Source: Amoebophrya sp. A120 (taxonomy: Eukaryota; Protista; Dinoflagellata). Taken from it: 64,000 nucleotides of DNA. The notes under the pieces were generated by a model. That model was not told the origin of the DNA, searched no databases, and saw only the letters and a program-made list of their open reading frames with translations. Within the stretch, counting starts at the first letter, position 1; the number at the start of each line of letters is the position of its first letter. Shown here in pieces: positions 1-64,000 of this stretch. A program made the position numbers and the translations under genes. Location of the stretch: contig CAJINV010000004.1 in NCBI GenBank assembly GCA_905178155.1, positions 4,644,518 through 4,708,517 of the forward strand. The letters are read 5' to 3'.

Positions 1-810
1 GGAGCTCCAAGACCACCCGGACGGCGTCCACTTCGAGGACTTTGCGAAGCACCAAAAAATAATGCGGTCCATCTTCGAGGGCCATCCCGTGTTCCAAATT
101 TCGGGCAGTGTCTGCCAGGTGCTTTTCTTAGCCTACTTTCTGCTATGAGATTGCACGACAACTTCCCTACCCCCTCCCCCTCATTTGTATTGCATGAACA
201 GCAGTACAAACGCCAGCGACCTTGGAGCTTGTGCGTGACAAACTTATGTACCTACTGTAGTACTATTTGGGCTCTCGAAACTTGTCATGCAAACAGTGCC
301 ACAAGGCAGTGGCTGGATTTGGGATTTTGCATGACAAATGAGGGGGGAGGGGGGAGTTGTGCACTCTCATATCTGCTCGCGTTGCGGGCGGAGAAGCTGC
401 GGGTGTGGGAGTTGGCGGACATGTCGTCGAGCGACGAGGACGAGGAGGTGCTCGATGAGAACGAGTTTTTGGAGCACATGTCGCTGTTGAAGAAAAACCA
501 GCCGCGTCTGCAGCGGCAGCACGCAAACAAGCGCGACACCTTGACGCTGCAAAGCCTGGCATCGACGACGACCTCCACGGTGTCGGTTGCAGGAGTAGTG
601 CCAGGAGCAGCTGGAAGTGTCCTGGTTGCAGCAGGAGCAGCAGCTCGGGAAGGCAGTAGTGCGAAAGAATCAGCTCCACCGACAGGCGCTGCTTCCACGA
701 CCGCGTCATTGCCAACGCAACAGAAAAGGATGGGGTTCGCAGGTGTGGTAAGGCCGGAAGGAGAACAAGCAGTGGCAGAAGACGGAGAACAGGTCAGGAT
801 GGTGCAATAG
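1..810 (+). CDS. 3' part of a hypothetical, probably membrane protein (5' end outside window)
   Basis: Exons 2-143 and 377-810 join as ...CQVLFLAYFL|LALRAEKLRVWE... after removing element 144-371 plus one DR; stop TAG 808-810. Confidence 0.75.
   Translation, partial: GAPRPPGRRPLRGLCEAPKNNAVHLRGPSRVPNFGQCLPGAFLSLLSAMRLHDNFPTPSPSFVLHEQQYKRQRPWSLCVTNLCTYCSTIWALETCHANSATRQWLDLGFCMTNEGGGGSCALSYLLALRAEKLRVWELADMSSSDEDEEVLDENEFLEHMSLLKKNQPRLQRQHANKRDTLTLQSLASTTTSTVSVAGVVPGAAGSVLVAAGAAAREGSSAKESAPPTGAASTTASLPTQQKRMGFAGVVRPEGEQAVAEDGEQVRMVQ
144..371. mobile_element. Introner family A (TIR TATGA-AGTGCACAACTCCCCCTCCCCCTCATTTG)
   Basis: Ends TATGAGATTGCAC...GTGCACTCTCATA; DR TCTGC/TCTGC; removal restores frame. 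Confidence 0.93.
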
Positions 811-1814
811 ACACTTCTTGACAAATGCTTTTACAACTTTTGTGAAAGTTATTCTTGTTTTTCGAGAATCATCTCCTGGGTCATGTAGTGTGGACGACGG
901 GAAGACTTGTAGAATAATGAAGAACAGGAAGAAATGTCATTACCAACCTCAGCGCCGCTGTTATACTTTTTGTTGTCAATATGCCGGCTGAGTCTTCAAT
1001 TTTTCAATGCTGATCAAAGTTTCAAAAACATTGCGTCTACATTCGGCAGTTCTACTTGTTCAATCTTGTTTCCATACAAGCACTCGCACACGACGTCGTG
1101 GACAATAAGAAAACGCCTTGTACGATATCCAGACGAAGGACAAGAACGACAGAAAATAAAGATTAGCGAAGGCACGACTTCTTCCCGCCCTCTGTTCTCC
1201 TCACTACCGTTTGCACGCGCAGCGCAGTGAGGCGCAAACAGTCGTGAGTCGTCCCCCGCAAACAACGCCTACAAATTTTCTGGTGTGCGAAACAAAACGA
1301 GGCTGCATCTGCATGTCGTGGTTGATCGACGAACTTGAACACGAAGCAAGAAGTGATTTTTTTTGTAGACGTTGACGTGATTATTATCGTGATATTCCCT
1401 GAGGCTACTAGTGAGGAAAAAGCACTTTTATACGAGAGAAATAGAGAGCTGGTTCGTCGACAGAGTGGTTTCGCCGCTGCAAAAACGCGCTCTGTAGTTT
1501 TGTTGTCGCTTCTTTTCGCCTTCTTACTACAGCTGCTACTTCTACATCAAAAATTTTGATTGAGTCATTTAGTAGGTCAATGATCTTCGCTTCTATGGTC
1601 TTTCTCAGACGGGTAGTTGTCTTACCGCGAGGAAGGTGTCTATCAGTTGTTCCTTGCATGTTTGAGTACAACGTCAAAGAGAGAGGGAGCCGTAGTTCTA
1701 GTACCAGAATATAGGTCAGAAGGTCCTCGGCCGCTGAAGCCGAAACAAGCGGGACCACGAGGACAACACGACAAATATTCAAATCATCCCAGCGCTAAAC
1801 ACAGCCCGGCTAAT

Positions 1815-4800
1815 ATGTCGGGAACAACTTTCGGCGGTGGAAACGCGTCGCCTTTTGGCGGCGACGTTTTCGAGGTGCAGTGGAAGATGCGAAACCTGTT
1901 CCAGCAGTTGGATGTGCAGCAGCAACAGCAGGCGTCCAGTGGGAAAAAGGGCACCAAAACCGTGCACCAGATGCGGCTGTGCTACCAGATGTCGCAACTG
2001 CAGGAACACTTGACAAAAACGCGCACCAAGGGCGGCACGACGCCAACGTCCGCGAGCGGGGGCACTCCCGCTGGGCGGAAAAACGCCTCCAAATCAGCAC
2101 CAAGATCTAGAGCTGCGAGTATAGGATTTTGATGTTGACCGACTTGTTTTTTTTGATGCAATAGCTGCATATGTCAGACAGTAACTCGTGCGCCATAAGA
2201 CGCGAGCAAAGGGTGTTTTTTGTGAACATCATTCTTGATTCACAAATTTTCGCTACTGTTCGTTTCTTGTTGTGCTGGATCAATGGTAATGACCAAGGGC
2301 CAAACAAGAGGTGATCATATTGACATCATACGACAAATTGTCATCACGTCAGGTCGTGACTTCGAGAAAGGCCACACGGCTGGAGGAGGTCCTCGTAACG
2401 CTTTGCAGGCACACATGAAGCAGGAGAAGCAGGCGAAGAAGGCGCAGAACAAGCTTTTCAAACGGTTTGAGGCGTTAATCGAAGGCCGGATCCACGCTGC
2501 TAGTGAGGAACAGAAAATGAACCAAATGCGGCAGTCGCTCGAGAAAGAACTGAGCGACTGTGTGAAGAAGAAAAAGTATAGAAGGCATTTTTTGATGGTT
2601 TTGTTTTTATTGATGCTGGTGTACATTAGAAGAAGTAGAACGAATTAATGCGAAGGGATAGACTATTGTTCTCTTCACAGCAGCTGCTTGCTGATCCCGC
2701 ATCTTGAATTTTACGAATACACGTAGGACGCTGATGCGCAACCAACGACCTTCGTCTGCTGCGCCGACTGGCAGTAACCCCTCGGTAATGATGTCCGGCG
2801 AGCGCAGTGCAGAGATGAAGCACCACTATCACCATCGAAGCGACTATGCTCCTGGCATGGCCGGATCCACTGCCCAGCTGCACGACCAAAGAGACGAAGT
2901 GAGAGGTACTAATGGCAAAAATGCAACCTACCCAAACAAGATGAGCGCAACCAATGCCCGTCCCCTGTCCGCGGGGCCGTGTTTGCAGCAAGCGCACCAC
3001 ACGAGTCTGGCGGACTGGAAGGCGAACCGGATGCTGCACCAAGACCACCAGCATCAGACCGGGGCGGGGGCTTTGGACAGCAAGGAGGCCAATCCGATCT
3101 TCAAACAATGGCAGCAGATACAGAAAATGATATGACAGTGCACAACTCCCCCTCCCCCTCATTTGTATGACATGAACGGCAATACAAGCATCAGCAAGAG
3201 TGCCGGTTTTGCATGACAAGTTTACAGCACTGGAGTGTAGTTCTGTTTGAGCTTCCAAGATTTGTCATGCAAACTGTGCTACAAGGCAGCAGCTGGATTT
3301 GGGGTTTTGCATTACAAGTGAGGGGGAGGGGGAGTTGTGCACTTTCATAAATGAAGTCACAAGTGCGGAAACAAATCCAGTCTTCGTCCAGACCGGTATT
3401 TATACAAATCAGATTTATTGTGATGAGACCTTGCGCTTTCAGGGGGCTTGTCAGGGGAAGTAGTAAACGATGTTGCTATAATTTTCATCTTGTATGATGC
3501 GTTGCAAGGCAACAAGTAGTTTCCCTTTCCAAACTCGGTCGAAGGTGTCTGCCAGTGGCGTGATGATGTCTAGCACAGCTGCGTCAAAGAACAGCGGCGC
3601 AAGTCCAAGTCCACCGATGGCCGGTTCATCTGCAACACAGCACCAGGACCACGGTGCGTCGACGGCTGCAGCTGCTGGCACTAGTAGTGCAACAGCGGGC
3701 AATAAGACGGATGATGAGCTGATCCTCCTTTCCCCGCCCCAGAACGTCCGGCCCTACTCGGCGCACCCGAAGTCCCTGCAACCCAAACCGAGCGCGGAGC
3801 TCGCGGACACCGGGGGTCCAGACGACGAGAATAACACGGTGAGGCGCGCTTCTGCGGGCCTCGACGACAACGCGAGCGTGTTTCTGGACAAGGCAAAGAA
3901 GCGGCCCTGGACCAGCACCGGACTCCTGCACGAAAATAACTCTTCCAAGATCCAGCAGCCCGCGCAAGTGATTGCCAATATCGTGAACAACAAACCGAAG
4001 AAGAAGCGACCGGGCGCCGCGAAGAAGCGAAACACCTCAACGGGGGAGCGAGCGATGATTCACAGCCAGATCGCCATGCTGCAGACCCAGCTGGCCGCGG
4101 CGAGCGGGTATAACACAGGAGGTGGTGGTGGAAATAATAGTGCAACAGTGTCTGGTGGAGCAACAGCGACGAATAAAATGAGTCGCGGTAACAGCTCGAG
4201 TGGCAATAAAACGCGGTCTCAGCTACGGAAGAAGTACGGCCCAGATTGCCCGATCGGCTTCGACAACGCAAATGACGGCTACGCGTCGGATGAGGCTTTC
4301 ATCATCGACGACGCCGACGACGGCTACGCGAGTGACACGTCGGAGAAAATCCGCGAGGCACACACGGGGCAGTTCTACTCCTCGGGCAATTCGAGTTCTA
4401 TGGGAATCTATCCTGTGCAAAGGTATCGCACTCGTAGTAATAAATTGCGACCATGCATGACAAACATCCCTTTTTAGCTAAGGCAGCAGTACAAACTCCA
4501 CTTGTCTTCTTGAAAAGAAAATTTGTGATGCAATTCATACTAGTACGATACTTTTGCAATGCATAGAATTATCCATCGCAAGCGGGGCTTCAGTGCCGCG
4601 AGGAAACGAGGGTTGTCTATGACAGTGCACAACTCCCCCTCCCCCTCATTTGACATGCAAAGTACCAATTCCGCCCTTTTCTCTTTGGCACATCTTGCAT
4701 GACAGATATCGGAAGCCGAACCAGCACCAGACTCGGTCGCGAGTTTGTCATGCAAAAGCTGCATTTATGCCAGCACTTGTGTTGCTGTATATGCCATTCA

Positions 4801-7800
4801 AATGAGGGGGAGGGGGAGTTGTGTACTTTCATACTGTCGGCGAAAAATCGAGAAGGCGGTAGTGGTTCTGGTAATGTTCAACATGTCGCCGGGTCAACGA
4901 CTGTTGGAGCTGCAGCTGCTTCATCCCAAGGTAGTGGAGCTGCACCTGAAGGAGCAGCAGCCCGGATGAGCACGACAGCCGCCGGTGCGGCTGCAGCTGC
5001 TAACAACTCTTCTTCATCTTCACACAAAGCAAGCGAAAAGGAAAAGAACACAATGTCCAGCAAAGTCGCTGCTGCAAACGCCCGCATCCGATCCGGTGTT
5101 GATGAAGAGCACGAGGTACTTTTTTTTCATGTTTTTTCATCAACAGATCAACATTGATGAAAACAACGACGTCTTCCCCGTGTGACACTGAAAATGCATT
5201 TTTTGTGAAAAAAGAGATGAAAATACTGCAACTCTCTGATGTATCGCTTTCATCACATCAATTTCCAGGCCACCGTGGCGTTGCTTCAGGCCGTGGCAAG
5301 TCCGAACCGGCGGCGGCGGATCAATCCGCTCGTGAACCGCCAAGTACCCATGCTCGATCTCACCCGAACGAAGAGCTTCAAGGAAGATGTCTCCTACCCC
5401 GTTCTAACCACAGCGGAAAGCTCGAACGCGGGAGGGAATGACGAGGAGGAACAGACCGACCTTCGTGACGAGGCTGCAAAAGGTTTTCGAAATAGTCGTG
5501 TTGTTGAAAACGACCTGAAAGTGCAAGATTTAAGCACTCGCCGCGAGCAGCAGCAGGTCGTGTTGAGCCAAAACCTCAAGGCTTCACAAGGAGGAGGAGC
5601 GCCCTCTGCTGCGTCCTCGTCCAGCGGTAGCAGCAACTATAGCAGCACAACGGCCGCTTCTACCTCCGCTGCAGCCTCGTTAACCTCCAGTGGCACGACC
5701 GGTGCAGGAGCGAGCAGCAAAGCCAAAGCGGGCGTGTCAGCGACAGCGTCTGCGTCCTCTGCAAGTTCTGGTACTAATTCATCTTCCAGCGCAACAAGCA
5801 GTGCCTCCAGTACTTCTAGCGTCATCAAGCGTAGTACCAAGCACCCGCTCCAAGCAAAATCTGGAGATGGAACAACCACGACTTCTATGGCCACGACCTT
5901 CAAGAGGTCCTTCACTACCGGAGTGGATGTTCTCCCGCACCCGCCGACGGGGGATGCAGTGCAGTACCACATCGAGACGACAGAGGACGGGAATGTTCAC
6001 ACGTTGATGCGCACGACGAGCACCGAGAGCGGCAAGGTGGTGTCCGGCTCGATGGTGCAGCAGCAGCCTTTGGGTGGAGGTGCAGGAGGAGCTGTGGGAG
6101 CAGGATCAACAACGGGCAGCAGTGGCGGTGTTCATCTCGGAGCTAGTACTGTAGCTGGTAGCACAGCAACAGGAACAGCATCCGCTCATCACTCGGCAAC
6201 GTCAAACACTGCTGCCGCGACACCAGTTGCTGGAAGCGCTGCGCCAGCCATGATATCTGCGAACAGCAGTAGTGCTGCTTCGTCTTCTTCATCGTCGTCC
6301 AGCAGTAGTGCTACTATCAGAAGAAGTGCGCCGAATAACGTCGCAAATGTCGGACAGCACCCGATGTTGAGTCGGTCCCTCACTACCTCCGCCACAACGA
6401 CGACCAGCATCGTGGAGCCAAAGCCCGCGGATTTGGGCCCAGGTACTATCCCCTTTCGGGGGGCTTCCAATGCAGCAGGAGAAGGACCTGTTGCCCGTCC
6501 GCGAAGCACTTCCGAAGCGCATCTGGGAGGTGGTATCGGTGGCAGCCTTTCGGGAGCTTTAGCTCTAGGACAACAAGAACAACAGCCTCCGCCGCCGACG
6601 TTGACCACGTATCCCCGGCCGCCGATCATTGCGAAAAACCTTCTGACTTCTCTCGACGCGCAGTTCGAGGAGCAGCGGCGGAGACTGGTGCAACAGGAGC
6701 AAGCTGCCGCGGGAGCTCAAGCTGCTGCTGCTGCTACCAAACACCAAAACCTGGAGAGCGAGGACGGCAGCAATACGGCTCCTGCCGGCGGGTCGCGGGC
6801 AAAAGAGGCGGTGTTTGACCGGATCGGAGAGGTCTTTGTCCGGGCGGACAGTGATGTAGTAGCAGCAAGAACCAGGACTGACAGTAGTAGCAGCAACCAG
6901 CAGCAGCGTTTGCAGGCTCTGAATGCACAAAACCTGGCTGAGCAGATTGACGCGCGAGTACAGAATTTTCAACAACGCCGAGCGTTTGGAGCGGGAACAA
7001 GTTCACCTGCCGGAGGACCACCAGGCACGACAGCGACTAGAAGTGCGAACAACGCTCCTCCTGTAGGAAGTGTAAGCAACAAGCCCATCCTGGAGATCCC
7101 GATGCCTGACGACTTGGAGGACAACTCTTCTGGAACAAGAGCGGCGTCGAGAACAAATGTAGGAGCTGCAGTATCCGCATCTTCGACGAGGAATAGAGCC
7201 AGCGCGAGTGCTGGCACCCCCTCTACTGCAGCTTTCGACCAGGAGCCGACGTACCGACAGCACACGTCGACGCATTTGTCCCGAGTTGTGGGGAAGGTCC
7301 ATGTGCAGCCTTCGGCGACCAGTTTTCACTGCCAACACTATGGGAGTATTGGGCCGTCGAGTTGTAGTAGTAGTAGTGAGGATCTTCATCAGCGACGTGA
7401 TTTTATTCCCGAGGGTAAACATCCCTGTAACGAGGAAGTGGCCGCGCGAAACGCCCTAGCGGAAACGAGTTGCGACAAGAACAAGCTCATGCAGCGAGAG
7501 GACAACATAAGCCAGGTCGTGGCGCAAAAATTCACAGGAGCACTCCCCCCGAGATATAACAGCAATATCGGCGAGGCGAACTTTCTGGTCTTCCCGCCAC
7601 CTGAACCAAAAGTGGACAGGTTTTTACCACCGAAAATAAACACAACTTCCTCTTCTTCAAAGTCGGGTGATACTAGCAGCGACGCGAAGAGAACTTTGGG
7701 ATCATCAGGGGCGAGAACAGTTGTCAACAACGACGAGATGATATCAAATGTAAAAATGTCTGGGTCTGGAAACTTGTGATGCTGGTTGAGAAAGACGAGG

Positions 7801-8960
7801 ACGCCTCAATTGACTTGCAAGCATGACAAGTTTTGGAGGTGCTACAGTCTTGGCTTCTCTACGTGACAAAGTGAGCTTCTGCATGACAGAAAAGTGGAAC
7901 TTTTAGGTAATGCGCATGACAGACTTGAGAGTCATGTCAGACAAGCATGACAAACTTCCGCTCTTCCAGACCCAGACATTCTTACAATCCATAGATGATG
8001 TTAAACGCCGAGAGAATCGTTGTGAGCAGGGAGGTTCCCGCGTTTACGAAGAAGCAGACAGCACCTCTGTTGCGACCAAATAACGACCGCACCAGGAACT
8101 ACAGCACCAACAACTTAAATCAGCTGTCGCTTTCAACTTCGTCTCTGCAACAGCAACAAGAGCAGTTATTGGAACTGCCACTAAAAGTGGTGAATAGTGA
8201 CATGCCAGGGACGATGAAAGAGGATCATGAGTCGCTGCTTTCTGACGTCGAAGCTGCTCCTGGAACGAGAAGCAGTTCTAGTAGTACCACTTTCGACAAA
8301 AGTGGAAGTAGAAGCAGGAGTGGGACGTCTATCAACAAAATGAGCAACATCAAATCGAGCAGCAAGAACGTCGGCCTCGGCGGAGGTGATCCTAGAGCTG
8401 TAACGACTTCGTACGATAATTTTGTCTACCCGTTTCTGTCGCCGTCGCTCTGGTCGGAAGAGGACAAGGAAAACGTGGAGGTAATGGATCGATTCTTGAA
8501 AACGCAAGAACCGCCAAACTGGACCACAGCAGGTCGTCGGCCACCTGCGAGGAAGGAGAGCGGACTTGTTTTTCATGACCAACAGCAGATGAAGATGAGT
8601 TCTTCGTTTCTATCTTCGGACAGTAGCGGTGGAAACAGAGCTCCTTCGTTGTTCCCAGCAGCTGCAACTACTGCTTCGAATAAATCAATCCTGCTGCCAG
8701 AGGTCGGTGCAGCAGCGCAGAAAAGTGGTGCATCGAGTAGTTCATCTTTTCAACATCGCACTCAAACTGCAGCTCATAGTCATAGTACTACCTCCACCTC
8801 GTCCTCCTCCGGAAATAAAGTCGGCAGTAGTTCCTCGTCACTTGCCTCTTCGTCAGCGAGCCTTTTCCAGAAGCCGACAAATCCGAGGCGAAGCCTGGAG
8901 CGCGAAAGTTTGAACTTAGAGATTGAGGACGAGTTTCTGGCGTCACTCGGGATGCTGTGA
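1815..8960 (+). CDS. Large low-complexity (Ser/Ala/Gly/Gln-rich) hypothetical protein, 9 exons
   Basis: Exons 1815-2118, 2353-2575, 2727-3130, 3355-3395, 3509-4408, 4571-4617, 4839-5115, 5269-7741, 7999-8960 join in frame. GT-AG introns: 2119-2352, 2576-2726, 3396-3508, 5116-5268. Four introners. No recognisable domain. Confidence 0.7.
3131..3349. mobile_element. Introner family A
   Basis: TATGACAGTGCACAACTCCCCCTCCCCCTCA...TGAGGGGGAGGGGGAGTTGTGCACTTTCATA; DR AATGA/AATGA; spliced QKM|KSQVRKQ. Confidence 0.95.
4409..4565. mobile_element. Introner family B (about 150 bp; TIR TATCCTGTGCAAAAGTATCG-ACTCGTA)
   Basis: TATCCTGTGCAAAGGTATCG...CGATACTTTTGCAATGCATA; DR GAATC/GAATT; spliced MGI|IHRKRG. 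Confidence 0.93.
4618..4833. mobile_element. Introner family A
   Basis: About 33-bp TIR; DR TTGTC/CTGTC; spliced RGLS|AKNREG. Confidence 0.95.
7742..7993. mobile_element. Introner family C (TIR TATCAAATGCAAAAATGTCTGGGTCTGGAA)
   Basis: TATCAAATGTAAAAATGTCTGGGTCTGGAA...TTCCAGACCCAGACATTCTTACAATCCATA; DR GATGA/GATGA; spliced DEM|MLNAER. Confidence 0.94.
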
Positions 8961-44621: not shown

Positions 44622-44645
44622 CCGGAGTCGGTCTTGGCTGTGCAG

Positions 44646-46687: not shown

Positions 46688-47216
46688 ATAAAGTTTGGCA
46701 CGTGATTCCGCGAAATCAAACTTCGAATCATGAAGCTGCAAATTAATATATCAATCAATCTTCTTCCCCGTGCGACGAAGATTTGGCTCTCTGTATCTGT
46801 GAGTCGTTTTTTTGCTTCGTTCTCCTTCCACTCTAGTGATCGTTAACGCCATCAAGGATAAGGATCAAAAACTGCGACAAGAAAACGAGCAAACGTGATC
46901 GTTTGGTAAGATGAATGAAGATCGCAATCGCTGAAGGTCGAAGGCAAAACGATAAAAGCAACGTAATCTCAGTACGCACCCTGCAGCAAAGAAAGATAGA
47001 TTCTATTAAAGCAGAAGCTATTCTGAAGCGAAGGCCAGCCTTACTTTAGGTTTGCGTTTCTCTACCATCAGGAGTAATTTTCCGGTCCTGCAACTGTATC
47101 TGCATCTACTTGAGTAAGTATAAACTTGTTCGTACTGCTTGGTACTGGTAACACTGTCTAGGTCTTGGTCTACTTACGTAATTATAAAGTTGGTTAAGCT
47201 ACAGAAAATCATCATC

Positions 47217-51269: not shown

Positions 51270-54064
51270 ATGGTGGACAAGTTGTCCGAGCTTCGGGGAA
51301 AAGCTGGCGTCAGCGAGCCGGCAAGTCGCTACGGATCCCTGGACGAAGCTGACGCAGATGATCTTGGTGGCTGGGGAGAAGGGAAAACGTTAATGACCTC
51401 GCTCGTCGAAACTTCCAAGGTATAGCTTTCCACTAGTTTTGCGGCATCTACTTATGTGGGTACGAAGCAGAAGCAGATTCAACGTGAACGTTGATGATTT
51501 CTTGTTGTGCTACAGAAGTGCTGTCATCTTGCTCGTGGCGACAGCACAGCATGAGCTTTTGCATCGGGGGAACTATGAAAGAAAATTTCTTCTAAAGATG
51601 AAGTCAATAAAAAAAATGGTGCAGCCTAAGGAATTCGAACTGGCACATCTTATTTTACACGTACAGGAACTTCTCCCTATGACCGATTCCGTAAGGGAAA
51701 CCTCGGACCGTGTGCGCGAGCTGACCCGGCAAGCCGTGATGGCCACTTCCGCAGAAAAGGAGCGGAAGATCGGGGCGGCCGTGTCCAAGTATATCAACGA
51801 GGGGAAGGAAATATGCATTGCACGAGCATCGCACTTCTAGGGGGAGTTGCAGCGTTGCAAATTTTTCAAGAAGCAGGAATAGCTAAAGGCAAGCTGAGTT
51901 TGTCATGCCGATCAAAGTTGAAAAGAAAACTTGTCATGCGATATTGCAACTACTAGGACAAGCACGTCGATGCTCTTGTAAAAATGCATAGGAAAACATC
52001 ATGCAGGTGAAGAACATGCTGGACGAGTTGAAGTATCCTGTGCAAAAGTATCGTACTCGTAGTAATTGCAATCATCCATTACAGATTTTTTTCTAAAGGT
52101 GCACTCGCATTTCTTATGCTGAGGGAACAATATCAAATCGTTCCCTCAGCATGAGAAACTGCCCCAATTTGTCATGCATTTATACGAGTGCCGTACTTCT
52201 GCAATGCATATGAAGCGGCTAGAGATCGAGGAGGGAGACACCATGAGCCCGGCGGAAACGCAGATGGTGCACGCGATCATAAGGTCGGCTAGTCAAAGGT
52301 TCAAACTGAATATCACCGACTACATGAAGGTATGAATATGAGAAGATCAAGACTCTTTTTTTTGTGAAGATTTTCTACCGGAATCGGAATACAATTAAAA
52401 TTAATGCTTCAACCGTCTGACTCCGTGACTTTTTGAGTTCGTGTTGTTGCGCGACCTTCTCTCCATCTACTGCCCTGAGACGAAACGGAAAGAACGCTCA
52501 AACACACACATCAGGCCCAAGAGGAGTATAAGACGGCAGTAAAATCAAAAGTCGAGCGCCAACTCCGAATCGCGTATCCTGACGCCGCAGAGGAGGAAAT
52601 TCAGCAGCTTGCAGAGGAGGATCCGCTCAGCGTCCGAGAAGCGATTCAGGCACAGCTGAAGTCCGGCGGGAAAAACTCACTGCAGGTAGAGGAGGTTTTG
52701 TTTGTTCTGTTTCTTACATGATGCCAACATGGGGATCAACTTAATACTACTAGTGATTGTACATGTACGCACTGCCACTGCATTTCTATTCTATCTTGAC
52801 GGAGACAACTTGGCGCACTTGAAGATTCTTGAAGATGTTCTTGATCTCAACAACTACTACAGTCCACATTGTACGACCTGCACGAGAAGTATGGAACTGT
52901 CAGGATTGAAATCGTCAAAGTTGAAATAATTTCTCATGCATAAATTGCAGGGCATGAAGTGCCTCTCTTGCAGGGATGGCAAGTGGGGCAGATTGTGAGC
53001 CTATTTGGGGTTTGAAATAGCGCTGCTAAAAGAGCATGGCAAAAGCCGTCTTCTGTGCCCAAACAGCATGACAAATTGGATTCCGGTGCTCCGAAAATTT
53101 GTCATGCGCCACTTGAAAACTGGGTTCCAACTGGCATCCACTTTATGCATGACAAATTGTTTCAACTTTGTCGATTTCAAACCTGACACATCCATAAGAA
53201 GTATTCGGATATGAAGAAGTTAGAGGAGTCCGTGCTGTATCCTGTGCAAAAGTATCGTACTCGTATTGCAATCATGCATTACAAATCTTTATCTCAAGGT
53301 AAATCCGCATTACAAATTTTCTCTCTCATGCTGAGGAAATTTGTAATGCATGTATACGAGTACGATGCTTTTGCAGTTCATATGCTGGAGTTGCACGACC
53401 TGTTCCTTTTTCTCTCCGCCTTGGTGGACGAACAGGGCATGATGTTGGACTCGATCGAGGCCAACGTGGAGAATTATGAAAATGCATAACTCATTTCCCT
53501 CTACATGCCTCTCATTTTTCATGCAGAATACTAAGCCTAGCCATAGCGCGTTGTCGTTGCCTCGTGCTTGTGGACCACTTGCATGACAAGCTACAGCTGC
53601 ACGCCAACCCGCACTAGTACAACATTCCGTGTGGGGATTGGTCATGCCTTTAAAAATAGCTACATCCCTGTTCTTGCTTCATCTGTTGCTGCCCATGTTA
53701 TTTATACTTATTCGACACATCACAAATGGGGAGACGAGGAGGAGCAGTTCCACTTGTGCACTTTCATAAGAACACGCGAGAATACACGGGCGTGGCGGTT
53801 GAGCACCTCGCGGAGGCGAAACGAAGTAAGGACGCCTATGACCGGAAGCGGTTTTGGTTCTACGCCATGAGCGTCGTTTCCGCCATCGTCTGTATACTAG
53901 TCATCCTCTGCCTCCTCGGACCCAGCTTGCACTTCTTTTCGATGTTTCTTCCCAGCGGCGGCGGGAGCAATGCAAACAACCACGATCAACATAACAGCAT
54001 CAACAACAATAACCTCCGAGGGGGAGGCGGTGGCGGACTGCCACCGGCACAACCGAACGGATAG
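51270..54064 (+). CDS. Syntaxin (Qa-SNARE, plasma-membrane type)
   Basis: MVDKLSEL..., KVERQLRIAYPDA, SNARE motif DMKKLEESVL|ELHDLFLFLSALVDEQGMMLDSIEANVEN|TREY, C-terminal TM. Exons 51270-51419, 51667-51811, 51996-52033, 52216-52329, 52515-52685, 52863-52889, 53202-53237, 53388-53474, 53774-54064 (3 GT-AG introns, 5 introners). Confidence 0.92.
51812..51990. mobile_element. Introner, family B-related
   Basis: TATGCATTGCACGAGCATCG...CGATGCTCTTGTAAAAATGCATA; DR GGAAA/GGAAA; spliced GKE|NIMQV. Confidence 0.9.
52034..52210. mobile_element. Introner family B with an internal fold-back
   Basis: TATCCTGTGCAAAAGTA...TACTTCTGCAATGCATA; DR TGAAG/TGAAG. Confidence 0.93.
52890..53196. mobile_element. 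Introner family D, reverse orientation relative to 17095-17401
   Basis: TATGGAACTGTCAGGATTGAAATCG...CGATTTCAAACCTGACACATCCATA; DR AGAAG/AGAAG; spliced HEK|YSDMKK. Confidence 0.96.
53238..53382. mobile_element. Introner family B
   Basis: DR TGCTG/TGCTG; splits the SNARE motif ESVL|ELHDLF. Confidence 0.96.
53475..53768. mobile_element. Introner family A, divergent
   Basis: TATGAAAATGCATAA...TTGTGCACTTTCATA; DR AGAAT/AGAAC; spliced NVEN|TREY. Confidence 0.9.
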
Positions 54065-55567: not shown

Positions 55568-58500
55568 ATGCAAGGCACGACGGGCAGAAGCTCCTCTTCC
55601 ACTTCCACAGCACGACCCGCACCGAGCCCGAACTTGCAGCGGCCCTCTCTGATCTTCAACATCGACGCGGAAAAGCATCAAGCAGCGCGGGCGAGCGCAA
55701 GTGCAAGGAGCAGCAAGGCCACCATTTCGCCGAAGTCGGATGGCAGTGGTTCAACGATAAAGCCCGATTTACTAGGTGGATACGGTGGCGAGGAACATCA
55801 AGCAGCTGCACTCGTATGCATTGCAAAAGTAACGTACTAGTATAAATTGCATTTACAAAATTCGGCAAGAAGAAAAGTGGAATTTGTCATGCTGTTTTAC
55901 CATAGGAGGAAGATTTGTCATGCATATTTGCAATTAGTACGAGTGCGATACTTTTGCACAGCATAACTCGCAAACGTCAGCAACTTGCTGCATCAAGCGG
56001 TCGACGTGGAGCATGTGGAGATTACCGAGCGGGACTTCGACCACGCCCATATCGTGCAGGACAGCGTTTTCGCGCGTCTGGGTCGGCACGTTTGCGACAG
56101 AATCGTGGTGTCGGGATTTCCGAAGCAGTATGCTAGAGTAAAAAAAGCAGCGGTATCTACTTCGCGTCTTTCAGTTTGTATTGCATATCTATCATGTTAT
56201 GACATGCACCTATATAAATCCGATTATCTTCGTGTACAACTAGGGTGGACATCATGACTTGTAGCTGGGCAGCACGAGCGCGCTGATTTTGCAGCTGATT
56301 TTACATGGCATAAAAAGCTTCGGTACTACAACCGAGGGTCGGCCTATTTCCCATCCGACAAAGCGCATGACATCAACGGGCATTATTTGTACGACAACGT
56401 TCTGGGGTTGTACCGGAAAGAGAACGTCGCGACAGGAAGTACTATCATGGCAGGGGGATCAGGCGATAATGTTAGAGATGCACAGGAGAGCGCGGGCAAA
56501 ACTAAACCGTTCAAAGACCACGAACAGCGCATCCAGCCGCGGTCCTTCAGTAGCCGCGTGAGCGAAAGTAGAGGTGGCGTGGGCGGAGGTGGAACAATGG
56601 ATCCAGCTCAAGGGATCATGATGAGCCAACTTTCTGCAGGACGAGGAGACGAGGAAGATCCGGATAGCCACCTGTACCTTCAGTGGGTGTCCGACCACCT
56701 GGGGAGGTGGGTGGTGCACGAAATCCTGCCGGGCACCGCGTTTGACGCTACCACCGGGCATTTCAACTGGGACGAGGTGTCGGAGCACGACGACCGGGTG
56801 CTGGCCGTCATTCCCGACCCCCACTTCCTGTGCTTCCACGAGACCCCACGACAGATCGTGCAGGAGGCTTTTTTTTGGAACGGCAGGGCGGATGTGAGAA
56901 ACAAGCAAGGTAGCTTCATGAAGAAGCACGTGCACTTGCGGTTCTGCGGCAACCACATCGACGCCATCTGCGTGCAGGGCAGCCACAAGGTGCGGCAGTC
57001 CTACGTGGGCGGCGCGCGGGAGCAGGCCTCGAGGCTCTACTTACCGATCGAGCAGTGCGGCTGGAACCAGCTGGTGCGCAGTGCGAAGAAGGAAGTTGAT
57101 GTCGTGGGGAAAAGTAGTAGTCCTACTGCTGCTGCCGATAAAGAAGATGATCCTGTGACGAGTGACAGATATCGAGAGCTGAGTCACCAGGGCGCGAAAG
57201 AATTCGTTGACCAAAAGAAAATCCACCTGCACTCCGCCAGGAAAGGGAAAAATGGACGAGAAGATGTTGGCACAGAAAACAACAACAACGCAGCAAGCGG
57301 CAGGTCGTCAACCCGCGCTCCGAGAAGTCCAGAGGATGCCGACGACCTGGGCGTCACATTGGACGACAACTTGACGGATCTGGACCGGTTTTCCGCCGAT
57401 CTGGGAACGCACAGCTTTGAGATCTGCAACCTCAAATACATGGTCGAAAAGGAGAAAGGAAAACAAGCAAATAGAAATAGTGGTCCCGGCACCGCACCGG
57501 GTAGTGCGAAGTCCCCGGAAGCTTCAACATCATCGAGCTCGAAACGCAAAAGCAAAGAGAGCGCAACAGCAGGAGAGTCCTCAACAAAGTCAGGGAAAAT
57601 AAATCCTACCGCCACGACGACTGACCACGTCGACGACTACAACCTTGTCCTATTAGAGACGCGCAAGAATCTGCCCGCCACGGTGCCGTTCACCTTGCGC
57701 GAGATCGTGGACCGAAACCGGGAATTTGTGTTGCAAAACCTGGAAGAGTTCAACATGCTGGGCGCCGTGGTCACCGTGAATCACCGACAGGAGCCGCTTC
57801 TCCGCCGCATGGTAGAATGCTCGAGGGAAAAAGAGGACGTAGAAGAAGCGATAGCGAACGAGGAGGAGAGGACCGCGGAAGAGCAGGATGCAAGGGTAAA
57901 CACAACAACCGCAGATGGACCGAGGAAGCCTCCCCCGCCTCTAGCAGCGAAACCTAGTGCACCTGGTGCACAGATGAATAAAATTGCCGACGGCGAAGAT
58001 CTCCAAGCCCCCGAAGAAAAAAGTAGAATGTCAAACTCCCAAAACCACTCGTCTCTGTTGCAGCAGCTATTCGCGCATAATCTCGTCCGGTCCGTTTCCC
58101 TCGGTCCGACGCTGTGGTCCTTCCCCTACATCAGTCTCGTCGGGGCACCCGCCTGCGATTTCCACTGCAACGGGGTGTATGAGAAATTGCACCCGCTGCA
58201 GGACAAGGAGGAGCAGCAGGGCATTCTGCACGTGTACCGGCGGAGCTGGGTCAACGTACACGGCGACGTGCACGAACGGTTTCTATTGGTCCGGATGGAC
58301 ACGAAAAAAACCGTGCTGCATTGGCGCTTGCAAAAGCACTACAAGCTGCTGGAAGGCGGTGAGGTGGACTTTGACGACGACGGGATAGACGACGGTAGTA
58401 GGAACAAAGGCTCTAGCGGCACTGCTGTATCAAGGCGAAGATCATCCAGGCGGAACAGTGGCAGTGCGTCTTTCTCGCCCGCTCGGCGAAGCAGGTCGAG

Positions 58501-60688
58501 CGCACAAGAAGAGCAGGAACAGAAAAGGTAGAGGATCAAAGTAGTAGTAAGTGCGACGCTGCTCCTCGTCTAACTATCATGTGGTTATCGTTTATCATGG
58601 TCATCTGGATGAGCGGCTGATATTTCACTGTAGCTGTATATGTATTCTTATCATGAATGTTGATCTGCAGCAGCCAGCAGGACTACATCGGCGATGATAT
58701 TTGAGACCTCTTTGCTTCGTCCTTTTTCTCTGGTCAACATGCGTCACACTGTATACGAATCAATCGCCACAATACAGTACTTATTGTTATTCATTGTTCT
58801 TCAAGTGCCTCCCTTTGTCCACTCTCACAGGTACACCGAGCGCGGGGAGGTTTTGTTCCACGCCACTACACCGCAGGAACTCGAGTTGCACGGCCGCTTG
58901 GGGCTGCTGCAACTGCAGGGCGCTTGGAATAACATAAACATGGCCCTTCTTGGGGAGGTAAATAAAACGAGTTCCCCGACAGCTGCACACCAACATCAAA
59001 CCATTCTGCTTCATTTCGGACACGAAGTTCACGAGGACATGCTTGTTTCCTCCGAAGACGACGACAGCGAGGACAGCAGTACGGAGGAGCTGGAACTTAT
59101 GGGTGTGTCAGGATCGAAATCGTCAAAGTTGAAATAGTTTGTAATGCAGAAAATGCATGGCGCGAGGTACGTGCGTTGCAGAGCAGGCAAGTGAGGCCGA
59201 TTGTAAGCCTGTTTGGGGTTAGAGCTCGAGCTGCTAAAGTAGCATGAGAAAATCAGTCTTATTCGCCTAAACAGCATGACAAACTGGATTTCAGGACCAC
59301 CGAAATTTGTCACGCGCCACTTGGAAACTGGGTTCCAACTGGCATCCATTTTATGCATGACAAACCATTTCAACTTTGTCAATTTCAATCCTGCTAGTTC
59401 CATAGAACTTGGCTATAAACAACCGCAGAGAAGAAAAAGCAGCTCGGAGTTGAAGCAGGAAGTGCTGAAAGACCTGAAAACGGTGAATGTAGGTGACAGG
59501 AGCTCCTTCTCCTCGTCGCAGCATGTAGACCACGAAGGGTCGACGAGCCGCAGCGGTGCAAATGCGATGAACAAGACAAATAGCAAACCCAACTACACTT
59601 CTTCTACCCAAAGTGCTGGTGCGGCCCCCTCCTCGCGACGGATCCTCTCCCGATTAGATTCGGAGGCGATGGGGAACTGTGCGCTGAAGCTCGTAACCAG
59701 TCTCCCGGGCGGGGAGTGGTGCAACGGGGTCTACACCAGAATCGACAATGTCTTACTTCCTTCAGACTCGTCCAATAGAAGTCATGATTTTGTTCTTGAT
59801 GCGCACGCGCGGGAAATTGTGATGCAGAAGAGGCAGGAAGTCCAGACAAACCACGAGAAAGACCCGGAGTTGCACAAGTCGGAATCCTGCCTGCTTTTCG
59901 TTCGAACACACGTGGAGGTCGACGGTTTCATGCACCCGATCCTGAATCACCAAGCGCCGATAGAGATGGTGGGGGAACAGCAGAATCATTTTCCAGATGA
60001 CGTTAAACATCTACACCAACCATCGCAAGCTGACGATCCAGCACCAGGTGGAGAGATGAATTTGGATTATGCAGCACAAGAGGACCTCGCGTACAAGAAA
60101 TCCCAAGTTGAGAGCGCGAAGAGCGACATCTTTTTCCTACACTACAACCCAAACACCTTTGGTGGCAGCTGGGTCGTTTCGTGGAAGGAACATCCGCCAC
60201 CACTGAAAGAGAATCAAAAATCTTCTGGTGTTGCAAATAAGGCGAGAAAAACTTCTTCTTCCCCTGAGAAATCGTCTCCGAGCACCAAGGAAGATGATTT
60301 AGTACCCGACAACTACTATCACAAACCCGTCCGTGGAGGTTCTCCGACGAACCGCACGAAGATAAAGCTGAAACTGAGCAAGGCCGCGGCGGAACAGGTG
60401 AAAGGAAAGAGTGAAAATCCGGGAGCGGTTGACGCGATCGACGATACAGCAGCAGGGGCCGTCGACCACTCTGCTTCGGATATCATCGGTGTCATTCCCG
60501 ACCCATTTCGGTACCACTGGAAGGACCGGAGTTACGAAGGCGATTCGGAGTACGCGGGACACCACTTTTCCTGGGGACACTTCCAGAACACGGAGTTCGA
60601 CCTCTGTCTCGGAATGTTTCTGGACGACAACTACGCTTGGCAGTCTCGGGTGACCGAACTGATCACGCTGCAGCCCTTTATTGCATAG
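55568..60688 (+). CDS. Large hypothetical protein with internally repeated motifs (CNGVY, VIPDP)
   Basis: Exons 55568-55814, 55971-56128, 56318-58527, 58831-59097, 59410-60688 are in frame (3 introners plus GT-AG intron 58528-58830). Confidence 0.75.
55815..55965. mobile_element. Introner family B, reverse orientation
   Basis: TATGCATTGCAAAAGTAACG...CGATACTTTTGCACAGCATA; DR ACTCG/ACTCG. Confidence 0.94.
56129..56312. mobile_element. Degenerate introner
   Basis: TATGCTAGAGTAAAAAAAGCAGC...GCAGCTGATTTTACATGGCATA; weak DR AGCAG/AAAAG; spliced FPKQ|LRYYN is in frame with ORF 56387. Confidence 0.7.
59098..59404. mobile_element. Introner family D
   Basis: TATGGGTGTGTCAGGATCGAAATCG...TTTCAATCCTGCTAGTTCCATA; DR GAACT/GAACT; spliced LEL|GYKQP. 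Confidence 0.95.
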
Positions 60689-61628
60689 GACTTTCTACAA
60701 CTACTTAATACCCGTTGCTGTTTCCAAGAAGAAATTTCGAGCTAGATTACGTGTAAGATGGATACGAAGAATCTTGTCTTGCTACCTGCCTCTACCGCCC
60801 TCGTCCTCCTGTTTCCAAGAACTACAGATGAAAGTAGAAAAGTATAAGTACTGCCAACAAAAAGTAGTGGTGCTGCAAGCTGCTGTACCGGCAGGGGGCT
60901 GCACAGGTGTCGCGCTTTTGCCTGCGATGCCAGCATATACCGCTGACATTCCGATGCTTCCTTTGAGTTCACCTACGTGACTGCTGACACGAAAAGCTTC
61001 GTCTTGATGCTCAATCAAGCCCAACTCAAATAAACTTCGTGACATGGTCAGGCGTCGATCTTCCATCAAGAATATTTAGAAGGGAAAAACCTCGCAGTTC
61101 TACGGTACATCTAAATTGCTCCATCGCGGCTTTCGTCATCGTCAAACGGCTCGGTAGTTCACCTCTCGTGTCATCTGAAGATGAAGACATATGATCATGT
61201 TAGAAAATGTCCCACGACGTTCGTCTGTTTCTGACTCCAACAGTGTAGCTGTACTCGTTCTGGTCGTAAGGATATGAAGCTGCTGTCAACATCAAAGGGC
61301 CTCTAGCAACATCTCCGCCTTGTTGCCATACTTAGAATGAATCGTGAACGCAGTCGTGGTCGTAGCTCATCGTGGTCGTGGTTTATAAGGAACTAAGAAA
61401 TTAGTACGAATAATGGCTGTAGAAGTACTACTGCCATTTCTGACGAATCTATGAAATCCAACTGTCGATACCTGCATGAATTTTTTCATTTTCTTTTTCC
61501 GCGCACGCGCAGCTTTTTTTCTTTGCAATTTCGCTAGTTCGGGGCAAAATAAAAAAAAGATCACAACTCGTAGTTTTTACAGTTGTGCTCCTGTGACGCA
61601 CGTTCTCCTGGCTGCAAAGCTGCTTTCG

Positions 61629-64000
61629 ATGAAGGAAGAATTGTCATTTTCTGAAGTAAGAAGCGGCTGCACAGATCACGTCATGGCGCCATCAAAAATG
61701 CCAGTGAAGATCATGAAGAGTTTATCTGCAGGCCAGCCTGGTGGCTCGTCGTCGTCCTGGGCGTTGAGGTGGACATTTTACAGCCTGGCCACCATTTCCA
61801 CCGGAGGACCTGTCGTCGCATTAGGCTCCTCCGCCCCGACGTCTCAAGCGCAATCTTATCCGCCCCCGAGACGCACCCTCACAGGAGGAGCTGGCGGCGC
61901 TGTGCGAAAACCGCCACCGCCGGGTCGTGACAACAAGCTACAAGCTACAGCTCCAAGTAGACCTACAAGCGCCGTGACAACAACCTACAATCTACCACAG
62001 GAGCAAGTTGTGCTTGATCTGACCACTACCCCCACACCCAGCACCTTTTCATCAACGAGCCAAACGAAAATCGTTCTCCAGAACGACCACGGCCACAACC
62101 ACTCCCGTGCCCTCCAGACCGACAACAGTGCGCGGGGCAGCATCAGTGCCATTTCCGCGCGGTCCTGGGCGATCCGAAACGATGAAGTGATGGAGTACGG
62201 CTGGCGGATCGCGGAGCTGAACTTTTACGAAGACGCCGCCTGCAGCAAGAAACTGGAGCCCGTTCGCAACGTGCAGGGACCCACGGACGTGGACTACGCG
62301 ACCGCGATTTCGTCTTCCATGCGAGTCGTCCCGCCAAACTGCATATGCGTTTTTGCATCCCAAGTATCGTAGTGCTGCTGGTTTTCGCATTTTTACAAAT
62401 TTTCCCAAGAAAGCGAAGGTCAAAGACACAGTTTGAGTTTGTAATGGTGATGCAGGTAAGAACAATGGAATGTTGAGAATTAGTACGACTGCGATACTTC
62501 TTACTTTTGCAAGGGATACTGCCCCGGCTGGAGCCCGAATGTGGAGAACAAAGCGTACGATGTATTCTGTTCAAAAACATCCCCAGTCCAGAGCTGTCAT
62601 GCAGGTTTGTAATCACAGGAATGCTTGTAATGCGCATCCCCATCGAGAGGCGCTTTCCATAGTATTTTGGCATTTGTCATTCTGGAAACAGGATCAGGAG
62701 ATGGATTTGTCATGCGGATGCACTTGCTAACCTGCACTACCATACAGAGAGAAACTTGTCATGCTTGACTCCCGGGGGGGACGGCGTCTTCGGGTTGATC
62801 AATATGATCACCCACGCCCCCCTTGCACAGCATTGTGAATCTAATTGTAATTTGCTTGCTGTTGCTTTGTATGATTTGTATGACTCCTCATTAAAAAGCT
62901 TTTGTATTATTTCGTTTCGTAATTGGCTGCAAAAGAAAAAGATCGTATGGCTTCGTATCGTCAAAGGAAAGGAGAAAAAGCTCGCATTACTTCGTATCGT
63001 ATTGCCTCCGAAGGAGCTTGATCGCAAATTCGTACGCTCCTCATGCTGAAAGGTCCGATCTTCCCTGCTGCTCCCTCCCGCGTTCCCACGTAGATATAGG
63101 TCTCTACCCTTTTACTTCCTCCTTGTCGTCTCGCTTACTTCTGGAATCCTTGTAGCGCTAGGTAGCGGATCCCGCATGGCTTGCAGGGGCAGTTGTTTCT
63201 TTTTTTTCCGTCTTGCCAGCGGGCTGATCGGGGTGGGCAGATAGATGCTAACTATAGTATACATGGTCGCCATTTGCATTTACTTTACGTTTACGGCCAT
63301 ACCTTCACAGCTTGCCGGTGCTAATTACATAGTTTTCTCTCTCGAGGCCTTCTCTCCTCGTTCCTCATTTTCTCCTTTCCCTTAACTTTTCGCTGGTCTA
63401 TCAATTATCCGGCCTTCACCCCGGGTCCCAGCTGTTCGCGTTTTTCCTCCCGGCTGCTGTGCTCCTGTGTACCAATGTTATTTATCGTTTGGGCCTTCGC
63501 TCCCGCTTTTCTAGCTATTTTACTGTACTTACTACATCCGTGTTTAAGCTCCTGTCTACCTACACACACTTTTCAACCCTTCGGGGGGGAGGCCTTCATC
63601 CCTCCTTACATATCTTCTTGTTTCTTTCTTCTTGTTTCCGTCGGTCGCGCATGTGCGATGTTACCTGCTCGGAGTCTTTTGTTTTCCATGCGACTCCGCA
63701 GCCTCCTTGCACAGGTTTGTCATGATTGTCTCTTCAAGTCTGATGACTTGATTTGGTGCACGCACATTCGAGATCGGTGGGGCGAGGGAGGGACTCAAGC
63801 CAAAAAAAAAAATTCACCTGATACACAATGTCCCGCCCGTAGTAGCACAGTCTGTTTATGTCATGCTTGACTCCCAAAACTTCTGGACTTGTGTTGCAGA
63901 CTTCCCAACTTGATCAGGGGTGGGGACGTTTTTACACAGGATGCGACGGCATGCAAAACACGTTTTGGCAGTCGCGGTGCTGCCCCTGCCGGCGGTGGGA
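61629..64000 (+). CDS. 5' part of a putative secreted protein with an F5/8-type (discoidin/galactose-binding-like) domain
   Basis: Exons 61629 (or 61683)-62343, 62524-62562, 63949-64000+. Spliced WRIAELNFYEDAAC...PPNC|TGWSPNVENKAYD|GMQNTFWQSRC contains an AxDG...TxW motif. Runs off the window. Confidence 0.7.
62344..62518. mobile_element. Introner family B, reverse orientation, degenerate
   Basis: TATGCGTTTTTGCA...AAGTATCG ... CGATACTT...TTTTGCAAGGGATA; DR CTGCA/CTGCC. Confidence 0.85.
62563..63943. mobile_element. Introner family E (reverse orientation) expanded by a nested insertion
   Basis: TATTCTGTTCAAAAACATCCCCA...TGGGGACGTTTTTACACAGGATG; DR CGATG/CGACG. Without the nested insert it is 279 bp, the same length as 13128-13406. 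Confidence 0.92.
62774..63858. mobile_element. Nested 1085-bp insertion of unknown class with a 17-bp target-site duplication
   Basis: Perfect direct repeat TGTCATGCTTGACTCCC at 62757-62773 and 63859-63875; no TIRs; no convincing ORF. Confidence 0.85.

Follow-up and report, generated by a model that had tools for sequence, protein, structure and literature searches.

Amoebophrya is a marine parasite, and non-canonical introns make up more than 60% of the total in these genomes. Introner elements of strain A120 (Farhat 2021, PMC7789003) have inverted repeats (IRs) consisting of TAT, about 7 variable nt and an A-run, with direct repeats (DRs) of 3–5 nt at the exon/intron borders; 58 introner families are counted in this strain (Gozashti et al. 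2025, PMC12130899). Each of the nine A120 classes listed by Farhat carries T at +2, and in strain A25, with TT donors and IRs beginning TTA, the pattern is likewise N-T-A (Farhat Table S4, PMC7789003). The A120 spliceosome is near-complete, with U2, U4, U5 and U6 present; no U1 snRNA was found. The elements analyzed here resemble these introners in their TAT-starting IRs with an A-run, a length of about 240 nt, the 5-bp DR of the published example, strain-specific families, RNA-supported removal and lack of an internal transposase (PMC7789003). They carry the IR motif and DR, are repeated, lack GT-AG ends and are spliced from RNA, and thus belong to the published class, as the original prediction had recognized. 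What appears to be new is a single register, with intron borders one base ahead of TAT and four bases past ATA; a DR of 5, a strand-specific U/A constraint and an internal motif common to several families are further additions to a description of the same kind of element.

Three other systems are comparable. Euglena nonconventional introns are also MITE-like and non-GT-AG, have a TIR stem at fixed offsets and occur beside GT-AG introns, but they follow an N3CDG / CH'GN5-6|R code with paired motifs, and circles, not lariats, have been reported (PMC12501133; PMC11282704). That code is absent here, where the ends read N-TATS / SATA-N4 at offsets of 1 and 4, the two invariant bases do not pair with one another and exon +1 is unconstrained (A+G 0.57 at DR position 5, the same as in flanks, hence no purine bias). 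Introns of Giardia, Trichomonas and Spironucleus share a VTATGTT donor with variable first base, a branch A near the 3' end at fixed distance and end-pairing; they differ in keeping a full CTRAC branch motif and AG, in being few and in not being described as transposon-derived (PMC6679479). The non-canonical introns of Fritillaria borealis are likewise TIR/TSD-derived and non-GT-AG alongside a conserved U2-type spliceosome, but prefer AG-AC/AT ends and an exonic TAC and retain U1 (PMC11282704; PMC13326754).

The window, that is, the whole 64-kb stretch of DNA analyzed, holds 37 TIR-bounded elements between positions 144 and 63943 (29 found in a first pass and 8 more in a second), all within coding frames and 35 of them TAT..ATA, which confirms the predicted count and termini. 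The exceptions are TGT..ACA at 45521-45829 and TAT..ATG at 62563-63943, and T(A/G)T starts all 37. They sort into six multi-copy families plus seven singletons. The predicted intron for each element listed below runs from start-1 to end+4.

144..371, + strand, family D element; DR perfect
3131..3349, + strand, family D element; DR perfect
4409..4565, + strand, family A element, orientation 1; DR mismatch at position 5
4618..4833, + strand, family D element, opposite orientation; DR mismatch at position 1
7742..7993, + strand, family B element; DR perfect
13128..13406, + strand, family E element; DR perfect
16527..16840, + strand, family C element, orientation 1; DR perfect
17095..17401, + strand, family C element, orientation 1; DR perfect
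17453..17602, + strand, family A element, orientation 1; DR mismatch at position 1; followed by a 12-nt net micro-exon
17620..17908, + strand, family B element; DR mismatches at positions 3 and 4
20388..20648, + strand, family B element; DR perfect; insertion shared with orthologous locus L040, 96% identical
20700..20935, + strand, family F element; DR AAAAA; insertion shared with L040, 100% identical
21411..21676, + strand, family B element; DR perfect
30687..30830, + strand, family A element, orientation 2, in a SAM-methyltransferase (arsM-like) gene; DR mismatch at position 1
31215..31367, + strand, family A element, orientation 2, in the same arsM-like gene as 30687; DR mismatch at position 2
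41391..41614, + strand, singleton element with weak hairpin (z +0.5); DR mismatch at position 5
41831..42055, + strand, singleton element; DR mismatches at positions 1 and 2
42545..42840, + strand, family B element; DR mismatch at position 5
43173..43325, + strand, family A element, orientation 2; DR perfect
43825..44138, + strand, family C element, orientation 1; DR perfect
44174..44408, + strand, family F element; DR mismatch at position 5
45521..45829, + strand, TGT..ACA element with arm like family F, without the internal motif; DR perfect
47260..47479, + strand, family D element in a CAP_C/TPR gene; DR perfect
47601..47781, + strand, family A element, orientation 2; DR mismatches at positions 1 and 5; RNA contig restarts at 47783
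48877..49140, + strand, family B element; DR mismatch at position 2
49479..49740, + strand, family B element; DR CAAGG; sole GT-AG-capable element, register k=1
49880..50030, + strand, family A element, orientation 1; DR mismatch at position 2
51812..51990, + strand, A-like singleton element in a syntaxin-like gene; counted in the X2 length match
52034..52210, + strand, family A element, orientation 1; counted in the X2 length match
52890..53196, + strand, family C element, orientation 2; counted in the X2 length match
53238..53382, + strand, family A element, orientation 1; X2 length demands removal although retention is in frame and stop-free
53475..53768, + strand, D-like singleton element; DR mismatch at position 5; RNA contig restarts at 53769
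55815..55965, + strand, family A element, orientation 2; DR perfect
56129..56312, + strand, singleton element; DR mismatches at positions 2 and 3
59098..59404, + strand, family C element, orientation 2; DR perfect
62344..62518, + strand, degenerate A-like singleton element; DR mismatch at position 5
62563..63943, + strand, long element (1381 bp) with family E ends, TAT..ATG; DR mismatch at position 4

The predicted 5-nt DR is present but perfect in only 20 of the 37 elements, with 21 mismatches in total. A strict TIR+DR catalogue recovered 26/37 with zero extra calls within the window, and 0 elements in each of three Markov-shuffled 64-kb controls. When stems were scanned blind to their termini (a redundant set of 769), a perfect 5-nt DR flanked 329, 294 of them with TAT..ATA termini; repeats of 6, 7 and 8 nt numbered 28, 24 and 3. 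Positions 11-12 of the arm are A in 89-93% of 205 copies. TIRs, a TSD, short length, absence of coding content, high copy number and insertion in either orientation are all MITE traits, and the view of the elements as non-autonomous, with a 5-bp target duplication, is supported. Sixteen frames from three of five long copies gave no Pfam match, and no transposase or Gypsy-like integrase was found in the long copies tested; for 62563..63943, eight internal frames were covered, with 0 Pfam matches. Mobilization may depend on a trans-acting DDE transposase that would bind the shared subterminal motif GCATGACAA. Ginger2/TDD integrase-type transposons likewise have TIRs, with a 5-bp TSD in TDD-4/5, and TGT or ACA ends occur in a few of the present copies, but Ginger termini are TGTNR with TSDs of mostly 4 bp (PMC2836005), in contrast to TATS in the window; among strand-called copies from a related assembly, 323 of 331 5' arms begin TAT and two TGT.

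Retention in DNA and precise removal from RNA without G+1 or 3' AG are both supported by contigs. The transcript-like contig X2 is 2237 nt long, which equals the span 50736-54708 minus three GT-AG introns and five elements with 5 nt each (+4 would give 2242 and +6, 2232), and its middle part matches at 615/615 nt. DNA contigs X5 (depth ∼43) traverse eight whole elements with 0 differences, and locus L040, 92% identical to the window, carries 2/2 shared insertions. In sister loci bearing these families, exons match proteins deposited as Amoebophrya sp. A120 with 100% identity. Deletion of the element plus 5 nt, said to rebuild the frame every time, restores a full ORF for 30/37, in nine complete gene models, and +5 is the sole restoring offset among 3-7 for 27 of those 30; the other seven, in three genes (two with GT-AG models that do not close and a third running off the window), are open across the junction. 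GT-AG ends are achievable in any register for only 1/37 (49479), as expected for most copies. For the roughly 14 GT-AG introns of the original prediction, 14 candidates were listed, three of them backed by X2 length.

Seven junctions with mismatched DRs bear on the register. RNA contigs carry the upstream base at DR position 2 (48873) for 48877..49140, and the downstream base at position 5 for both 47601..47781 (47786) and 53475..53768 (53773). At 17453, a downstream base at position 1 is excluded, as it would make an in-frame TGA. Deposited proteins P0001 (at L078:1121) and P0002 (at L027:502) are compatible with only k=0-2 and k=0-1, and the P0004 residue at L009:29 is obtainable from k=1 only. 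The intron is therefore likely to comprise the last DR base, the element and four bases from the start of the second DR (N-U-A-U-S ... A-U-A-N4), given few sites, one register assumed for all and deposited proteins of another assembly taken as mRNA proxies. A codon-usage test of DR-mismatch direction was weak.

Strand asymmetry was assessed in the related assembly using 331 strand-called copies out of 417, from families found in both orientations. Base changes at arm positions 1/2/3 number 0/2/6 in the 5' arm and 10/3/0 in the 3' arm, such that no change falls on the initial T of the sense strand (intron +2) or on the A at element −3, against 16 at their mirror positions (p 3e-5, or ∼1e-4 once four patterns are allowed for). 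Because the intron ends four bases past ATA in the inferred register, this A is intron −7. Termini-blind detection gave 0 vs. 8 changes in 213 of 256 copies (p 0.008, same loci reused), and splitting that set by contig strand gave counts of 3, 2, 3, and 4. Three low-confidence copies had been dropped from the 331-copy set, L061 and L079 (strand undetermined) and L017 (DR 3/5); as oriented, their −3 A is changed. A-7 to G was never seen, though a U-G pair would survive. From these comparisons, the termini are judged to be under transcript-strand-specific constraint beyond what base pairing explains. The original prediction had removal proceed by structure or terminus rather than by splice-site reading; as stated, that part is not supported, given this constraint on U+2 and A-7.

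U+2 is present in 37/37 window elements and 331/331 copies. G+1 occurs in 116/331 (35% vs. 30% background, p 0.055) and 3' AG in 18/331, which is background (6.6% in flanks), so the elements have neither the G+1 U+2 donor nor the 3' AG of U2-type introns. The constrained N-U-A-U donor nonetheless resembles host GTA(T) donors, of which 12 correctly placed ones have A+3 in 11 and T+4 in 6. To judge from sequence patterns, U+2 of this donor and A-7 look like residual spliceosomal signals, with the spliceosome a candidate catalyst, and the invariance of A-7 makes it a candidate branch adenosine.

We put at roughly even chance the reading in which MITE-like elements persist in the DNA but are excised from mRNA, in a likely fixed register, by a probably relaxed U2-type spliceosome using the first U as +2 and A-7 as branch point. 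Such a spliceosome would read N-U-A-U, in which +2 is the U that opens the element, and would branch at the A lying third from the element end. Acting as a scaffold, the TIR hairpin would hold the donor close to this A, and distance, not sequence, would set the 3' splice site. Giardia offers a precedent: its donors are VTATGTT, the branch lies at a fixed distance from the 3'SS, and base pairing draws the intron ends together (PMC6679479). Since the flanking 1 and 4 nt add up to the 5-bp duplication, and TAT opens either strand of the element, the message would be restored whichever way round an insertion lies. Slightly short of even, in our estimate, is the wider proposal that the Amoebophrya spliceosome needs neither G+1 nor 3' AG, only U+2, a hairpin-presented branch A-7 and a measured 3' splice site; TAT..ATA ends and a 5-bp duplication would fit this 1+4 geometry, any insertion would be a ready-made scarless intron, and the N-U-A rule would also cover the A25 TTA elements. 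With a fixed register and two constrained bases, the excision question becomes one of single-nucleotide predictions, covering the lariat branch site and splicing-blocking mutations, and tens of thousands of junctions now arbitrarily placed within the repeat could be annotated. If true, spliceosomal reading would show the minimal sequence need of a spliceosome and explain how elements invaded coding exons, where their density is 0.6-0.8 per kb.

A separate, Euglena-like machinery could instead recognize the hairpin termini, cut 1 nt upstream of TAT and 4 nt downstream of ATA, ligate the exons and release a circular or linear RNA, with U+2 and A-7 as enzyme contacts. We consider this rather unlikely. 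In its favor, neither G+1 nor AG is required, U1 was not found, in Euglena, too, the code sets a stem at constant distances from the two junctions and circles have been reported, and any RNA-level enzyme also predicts fixed register and strand asymmetry. Hairpins joining the element ends are strong, with folding z ≤ −2 in 31/36 elements (14/14 GT-AG candidates lie within z ±1.5), yet the other 5/36 fold no better than shuffles, and conservation is higher at the termini than in the stem, where arm positions 4-7 are often unpaired. Also against such a machinery, the constrained base at +2 of the donor is followed by A-T, as in host GT-AG donors, and no candidate enzyme is known.

Removal might also be spliceosomal with A-7 serving as a ruler for the 3' splice site or as a protein contact, and with the branch point further upstream, e.g., in the TTTTGCA-rich arm, an improbable variant for which the donor evidence is identical to that for branching at A-7. 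It would account for the poor match of the A-7 context to the U2 branch consensus (U at −2 in 13/37) and for the GT-AG candidates, which lack a −7 signal (A in 6/14 only). However, no other 3'-arm position shows strand asymmetry (arm positions 4-7), and among families with unrelated arms the terminal ATA is the sole common 3'-arm feature, both of which speak against this variant.

IES-like DNA elimination or polymorphism, with transcripts made from element-free templates, would suit the TIR plus DR anatomy, and, among the joints listed, the contigs show elements to be present but do not show that rare excised DNA is absent; we regard it as very improbable, since DNA contigs cross whole elements at uniform depth, a second assembly has identical insertions and a double-stranded reaction offers no reason for sense-strand asymmetry. 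Least probable of all, and largely refuted at the junctions seen, is that transcripts use nearby ordinary GT-AG sites, an in-frame GT..AG pair lying within 21 nt for 31/37, or retain the elements, for which an open frame results in only 1/30 (read-through at 53238), against the exact X2 length, the RNA piece boundaries and deposited proteins that read exactly across 5/5 catalogued elements in L027 and 3/5 in L078.

Inverted- and direct-repeat scans of the whole window returned 37 elements between positions 144 and 63943, grouped into six multi-copy families and seven singletons. Element ends were TAT..ATA in 35 of the 37, with TGT..ACA in one (45521) and TAT..ATG in another (62563, 1381 bp). 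The 5-nt direct repeat (DR) originally predicted to flank every element held in length, whereas a perfect repeat, with both copies identical, was present in only 20 of 37. A strict catalogue recovered 26 of the 37 with zero additional calls, and zero elements in three Markov controls. An intergenic stretch at 36160-36827, with TAT..ATA ends, a perfect 5-nt DR, arms consisting chiefly of A/T runs and no internal motif, was excluded because its score fell inside the control range; it is possibly a 38th, non-coding insertion.

Host genes of all 37 elements lie on the + strand, as does every gene model in the window. All 37 elements fell within coding frames (p ~7e-9, given that ~60% of element-free sequence is coding in our own models), in agreement with the original prediction, and its claim that deleting the element plus exactly 5 nt rebuilds the frame was also borne out: in nine complete models, which together hold 30 elements, such deletion restored a full ORF, +5 being the sole ORF-restoring offset among 3-7 for 27 of the 30, and the frame was open locally around the junction for the other seven elements. 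Pfam identified methyltransferase and CAP_C domains among the hosts, with weak TPR and TSP1 matches; "arsM" and "syntaxin" we take as labels for host genes, and two syntaxin exons examined had no Pfam match. Selenocysteine occurs in some ArsM/AS3MT proteins, and the arsM-like gene has an in-frame TGA (31432-31434) that comes after a Cys codon and is followed by ~58 more open codons until TAA; this TGA is probably a selenocysteine codon. A lone in-frame TAG (44619-44621) between a 1741-aa ORF starting at 37919 and a same-frame 575-aa ORF may mean that the stop is read through, that there are two genes, or that the gene is broken. A 1154-codon ORF (26050-29511) is insertion-free and without Pfam match.

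Four sequencing runs were compared with positions 41200-60000, the stretch to which RNA-like evidence is confined. The X2 contigs, whose RNA status is a guess (no source run is on record as RNA), were treated as RNA because GT-AG introns are also missing from them. An X2 contig running from 50736 to 54708 measures 2237 nt, exactly the length predicted after subtracting three GT-AG introns and five elements with 5 nt each; offsets of +4 and +6 would give 2242 and 2232, and keeping any element at least 2387. Within this stretch, precise removal at the RNA level was supported. RNA-supported window cases of family A included both orientations. A raw RNA run, X8, gave no match to 41200-60000 beyond 38 partial reads at one spot.

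The arm pattern of family B retrieved at least 138 loci from one related assembly (505,667 nt once merged), yielding a catalogue of 417 elements with strand assigned by coding model; neighbors agreed in 114 of 119 cases at a margin of 6. A terminus-blind scan of the loci again gave a 5-nt DR and TAT..ATA ends. One locus, L040, is orthologous to window 18005-21060 (92%) with both insertions present, and the exons of two other loci, L078 and L027, match proteins source-named Amoebophrya sp. A120 at 100% identity; a homolog search for L026 found none. Both orientations relative to the transcript were found in seven reference families (e.g., 38:47, 25:20 and 14:16, among the matches listed). Among 198 framed copies, insertions were not spread evenly over codon phases: the DR end fell at the three codon positions in a ratio of 94:60:44.

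We define the splice register k as the number of upstream-DR bases falling inside the intron. In RNA pieces matching with zero differences, the upstream base is present at DR position 2 (48873), and position 5 (47786, 53773) carries the downstream base, therefore k is 1-3. Deposited proteins P0001-P0004 served as mRNA proxies, the A120 gene models having been built on transcript alignments in another assembly. P0001 permits k of 0-2 at L078:1121, and P0002, which reads exactly over all five catalogued elements of L027, permits 0-1 at L027:502. At L009:29, where positions 4 and 5 both differ, the residue in P0004 (an 80% homolog) is obtained only with k=1, and at 17453 use of the downstream base at position 1 would create a stop codon. 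P0003 reads into the element and says nothing on register, PDB alignments ended before the junction residues, and AT-bias and codon-usage tests of which DR copy had mutated were too weak. Every register datum agrees with k=1, that is, an intron N-TAT-S...S-ATA-N4, assuming a single register for all copies.

Substitutions at the element ends were counted in 331 of the 417 copies (strand vote ≥5, DR ≥4/5, among the matches listed). The first T had 0 changes vs. 10 in its mirror, the last A; the third T had 6 vs. 0 in its mirror, the A at element position −3 (pooled 0 vs. 16, p = 3e-5). Among the rows left out are three low-confidence copies that, in the orientation assigned, differ at the −3 A. 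With the inner-arm core as anchor, the same loci gave 0 vs. 8 in 213 of 256 copies (p = 0.008), and these counts were symmetric when sorted by contig strand. At k=1 the constrained bases are U+2 and A-7. By inference, the pattern is explained neither by a transposase, nor by stem pairing, nor by simple strand-biased mutation: the two invariant bases do not pair with each other, and positions of the A-to-T type behave in opposite fashion at the two sites.

We place about even confidence in removal by a relaxed U2-type spliceosome, a reading drawn from sequence, in which N-U-A-U would be read as donor, A-7 would serve as branch, a hairpin would juxtapose the two, and the acceptor would be placed by distance measurement. 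End-to-end folding was predicted at z ≤ −2 in 31 of 36 elements, against 12 shuffles per element, and the fold frequently has a loop at arm positions 4-7. No such fold was seen in the GT-AG candidates, and 11 and 6 of 12 correctly placed host donors began GTA and GTAT, respectively. Giardia introns (PMC6679479) set a precedent with their variable first base, TATG donors and fixed branch distance, but retain AG. A 12-nt net micro-exon (17603-17619) sits between two elements and seven further inter-element spacings are <50 nt; exon definition is therefore unlikely to drive splicing.

Non-spliceosomal excision resembling that in Euglena (PMC12501133; PMC11282704) is a distinctly less probable alternative. 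G+1 occurs in 35% of copies vs. 30% background and AG in 5.4% vs. 6.6%; a GT bias suggested by G+1 in 16 of 37 window elements is at most slight (116/331, p = 0.055). In the loci, each of the five DR positions accepts mismatches (11, 12, 7, 12, 9), so the window's scarcity at positions 3-4 was not reproduced. A tRNA-endonuclease bulge-helix-bulge model was dropped by inference, the DRs not being complementary. Spliceosomal removal with a branch elsewhere than A-7 is improbable; the loci yielded only three predicted GT-AG introns, too few for a branch profile. DNA elimination is very improbable: X5 DNA contigs (depth 42-47) run through eight whole elements with zero differences, so the elements are retained in DNA, and the depth over elements, hundreds to thousands of times higher, is as expected of high-copy repeats and not a copy number. 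Use of nearby GT-AG sites is scarcely credible. Only 49479 can itself become GT-AG, as had been foreseen for most copies. GT-AG models for genes 1815-8960 and 12338-13784 failed to close. A GT-AG candidate at 12582-12683, whose host model did not close, starts GTAT, ends CATAG, contains the element motif and is possibly a decayed element.

The elements are real and their class is already known. Among 22 of 58 A120 rows in Gozashti 2025 (PMC12130899), most families are classed as TIR DNA whose superfamily is unknown, and the splice-site and TSD calls are mixed. What appears to be new is the fixed register and, with it, the strand-specific U/A constraint; together they open the excision question to direct testing. 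A literature search covering few subscription journals found no paper with either a fixed register or a branch site for these introns.

Every large family carries the internal motif GCAT(G/T/C)A(C/G)A, pointing in both directions. In the window, 89 of 112 matches lie within 6.5 kb, and the loci hold 1470 within 106 kb against 517 within 400 kb (sense 507, antisense 564). We read the GCATGACAA motif as a putative transposase-binding subterminal repeat. Long copies span 0.6-1.4 kb.

Long copies in four loci and the window
L013, 505-1608, long copy, normal ends
L053, 6024-6995, long copy, normal ends
L005, 5001-6255, long copy, normal ends
L036, 3862-4492, long copy, normal ends
Window, 62563-63943, long copy, ends TAT..ATG

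Frames of three long copies examined had no Pfam match; the long copies may descend by deletion from an autonomous element, or may be nested insertions. The family A pattern had 0 matches in viral contigs, and Rfam gave 0 matches. A near-perfect inverted repeat without a DR of its own (45630-45716) lies within the TGT..ACA element. In families A and B, arm positions 4-7 vary freely between copies and between ends, with conserved neighbors on both sides; position 4 is almost invariably C or G, with T very rare at position 5.
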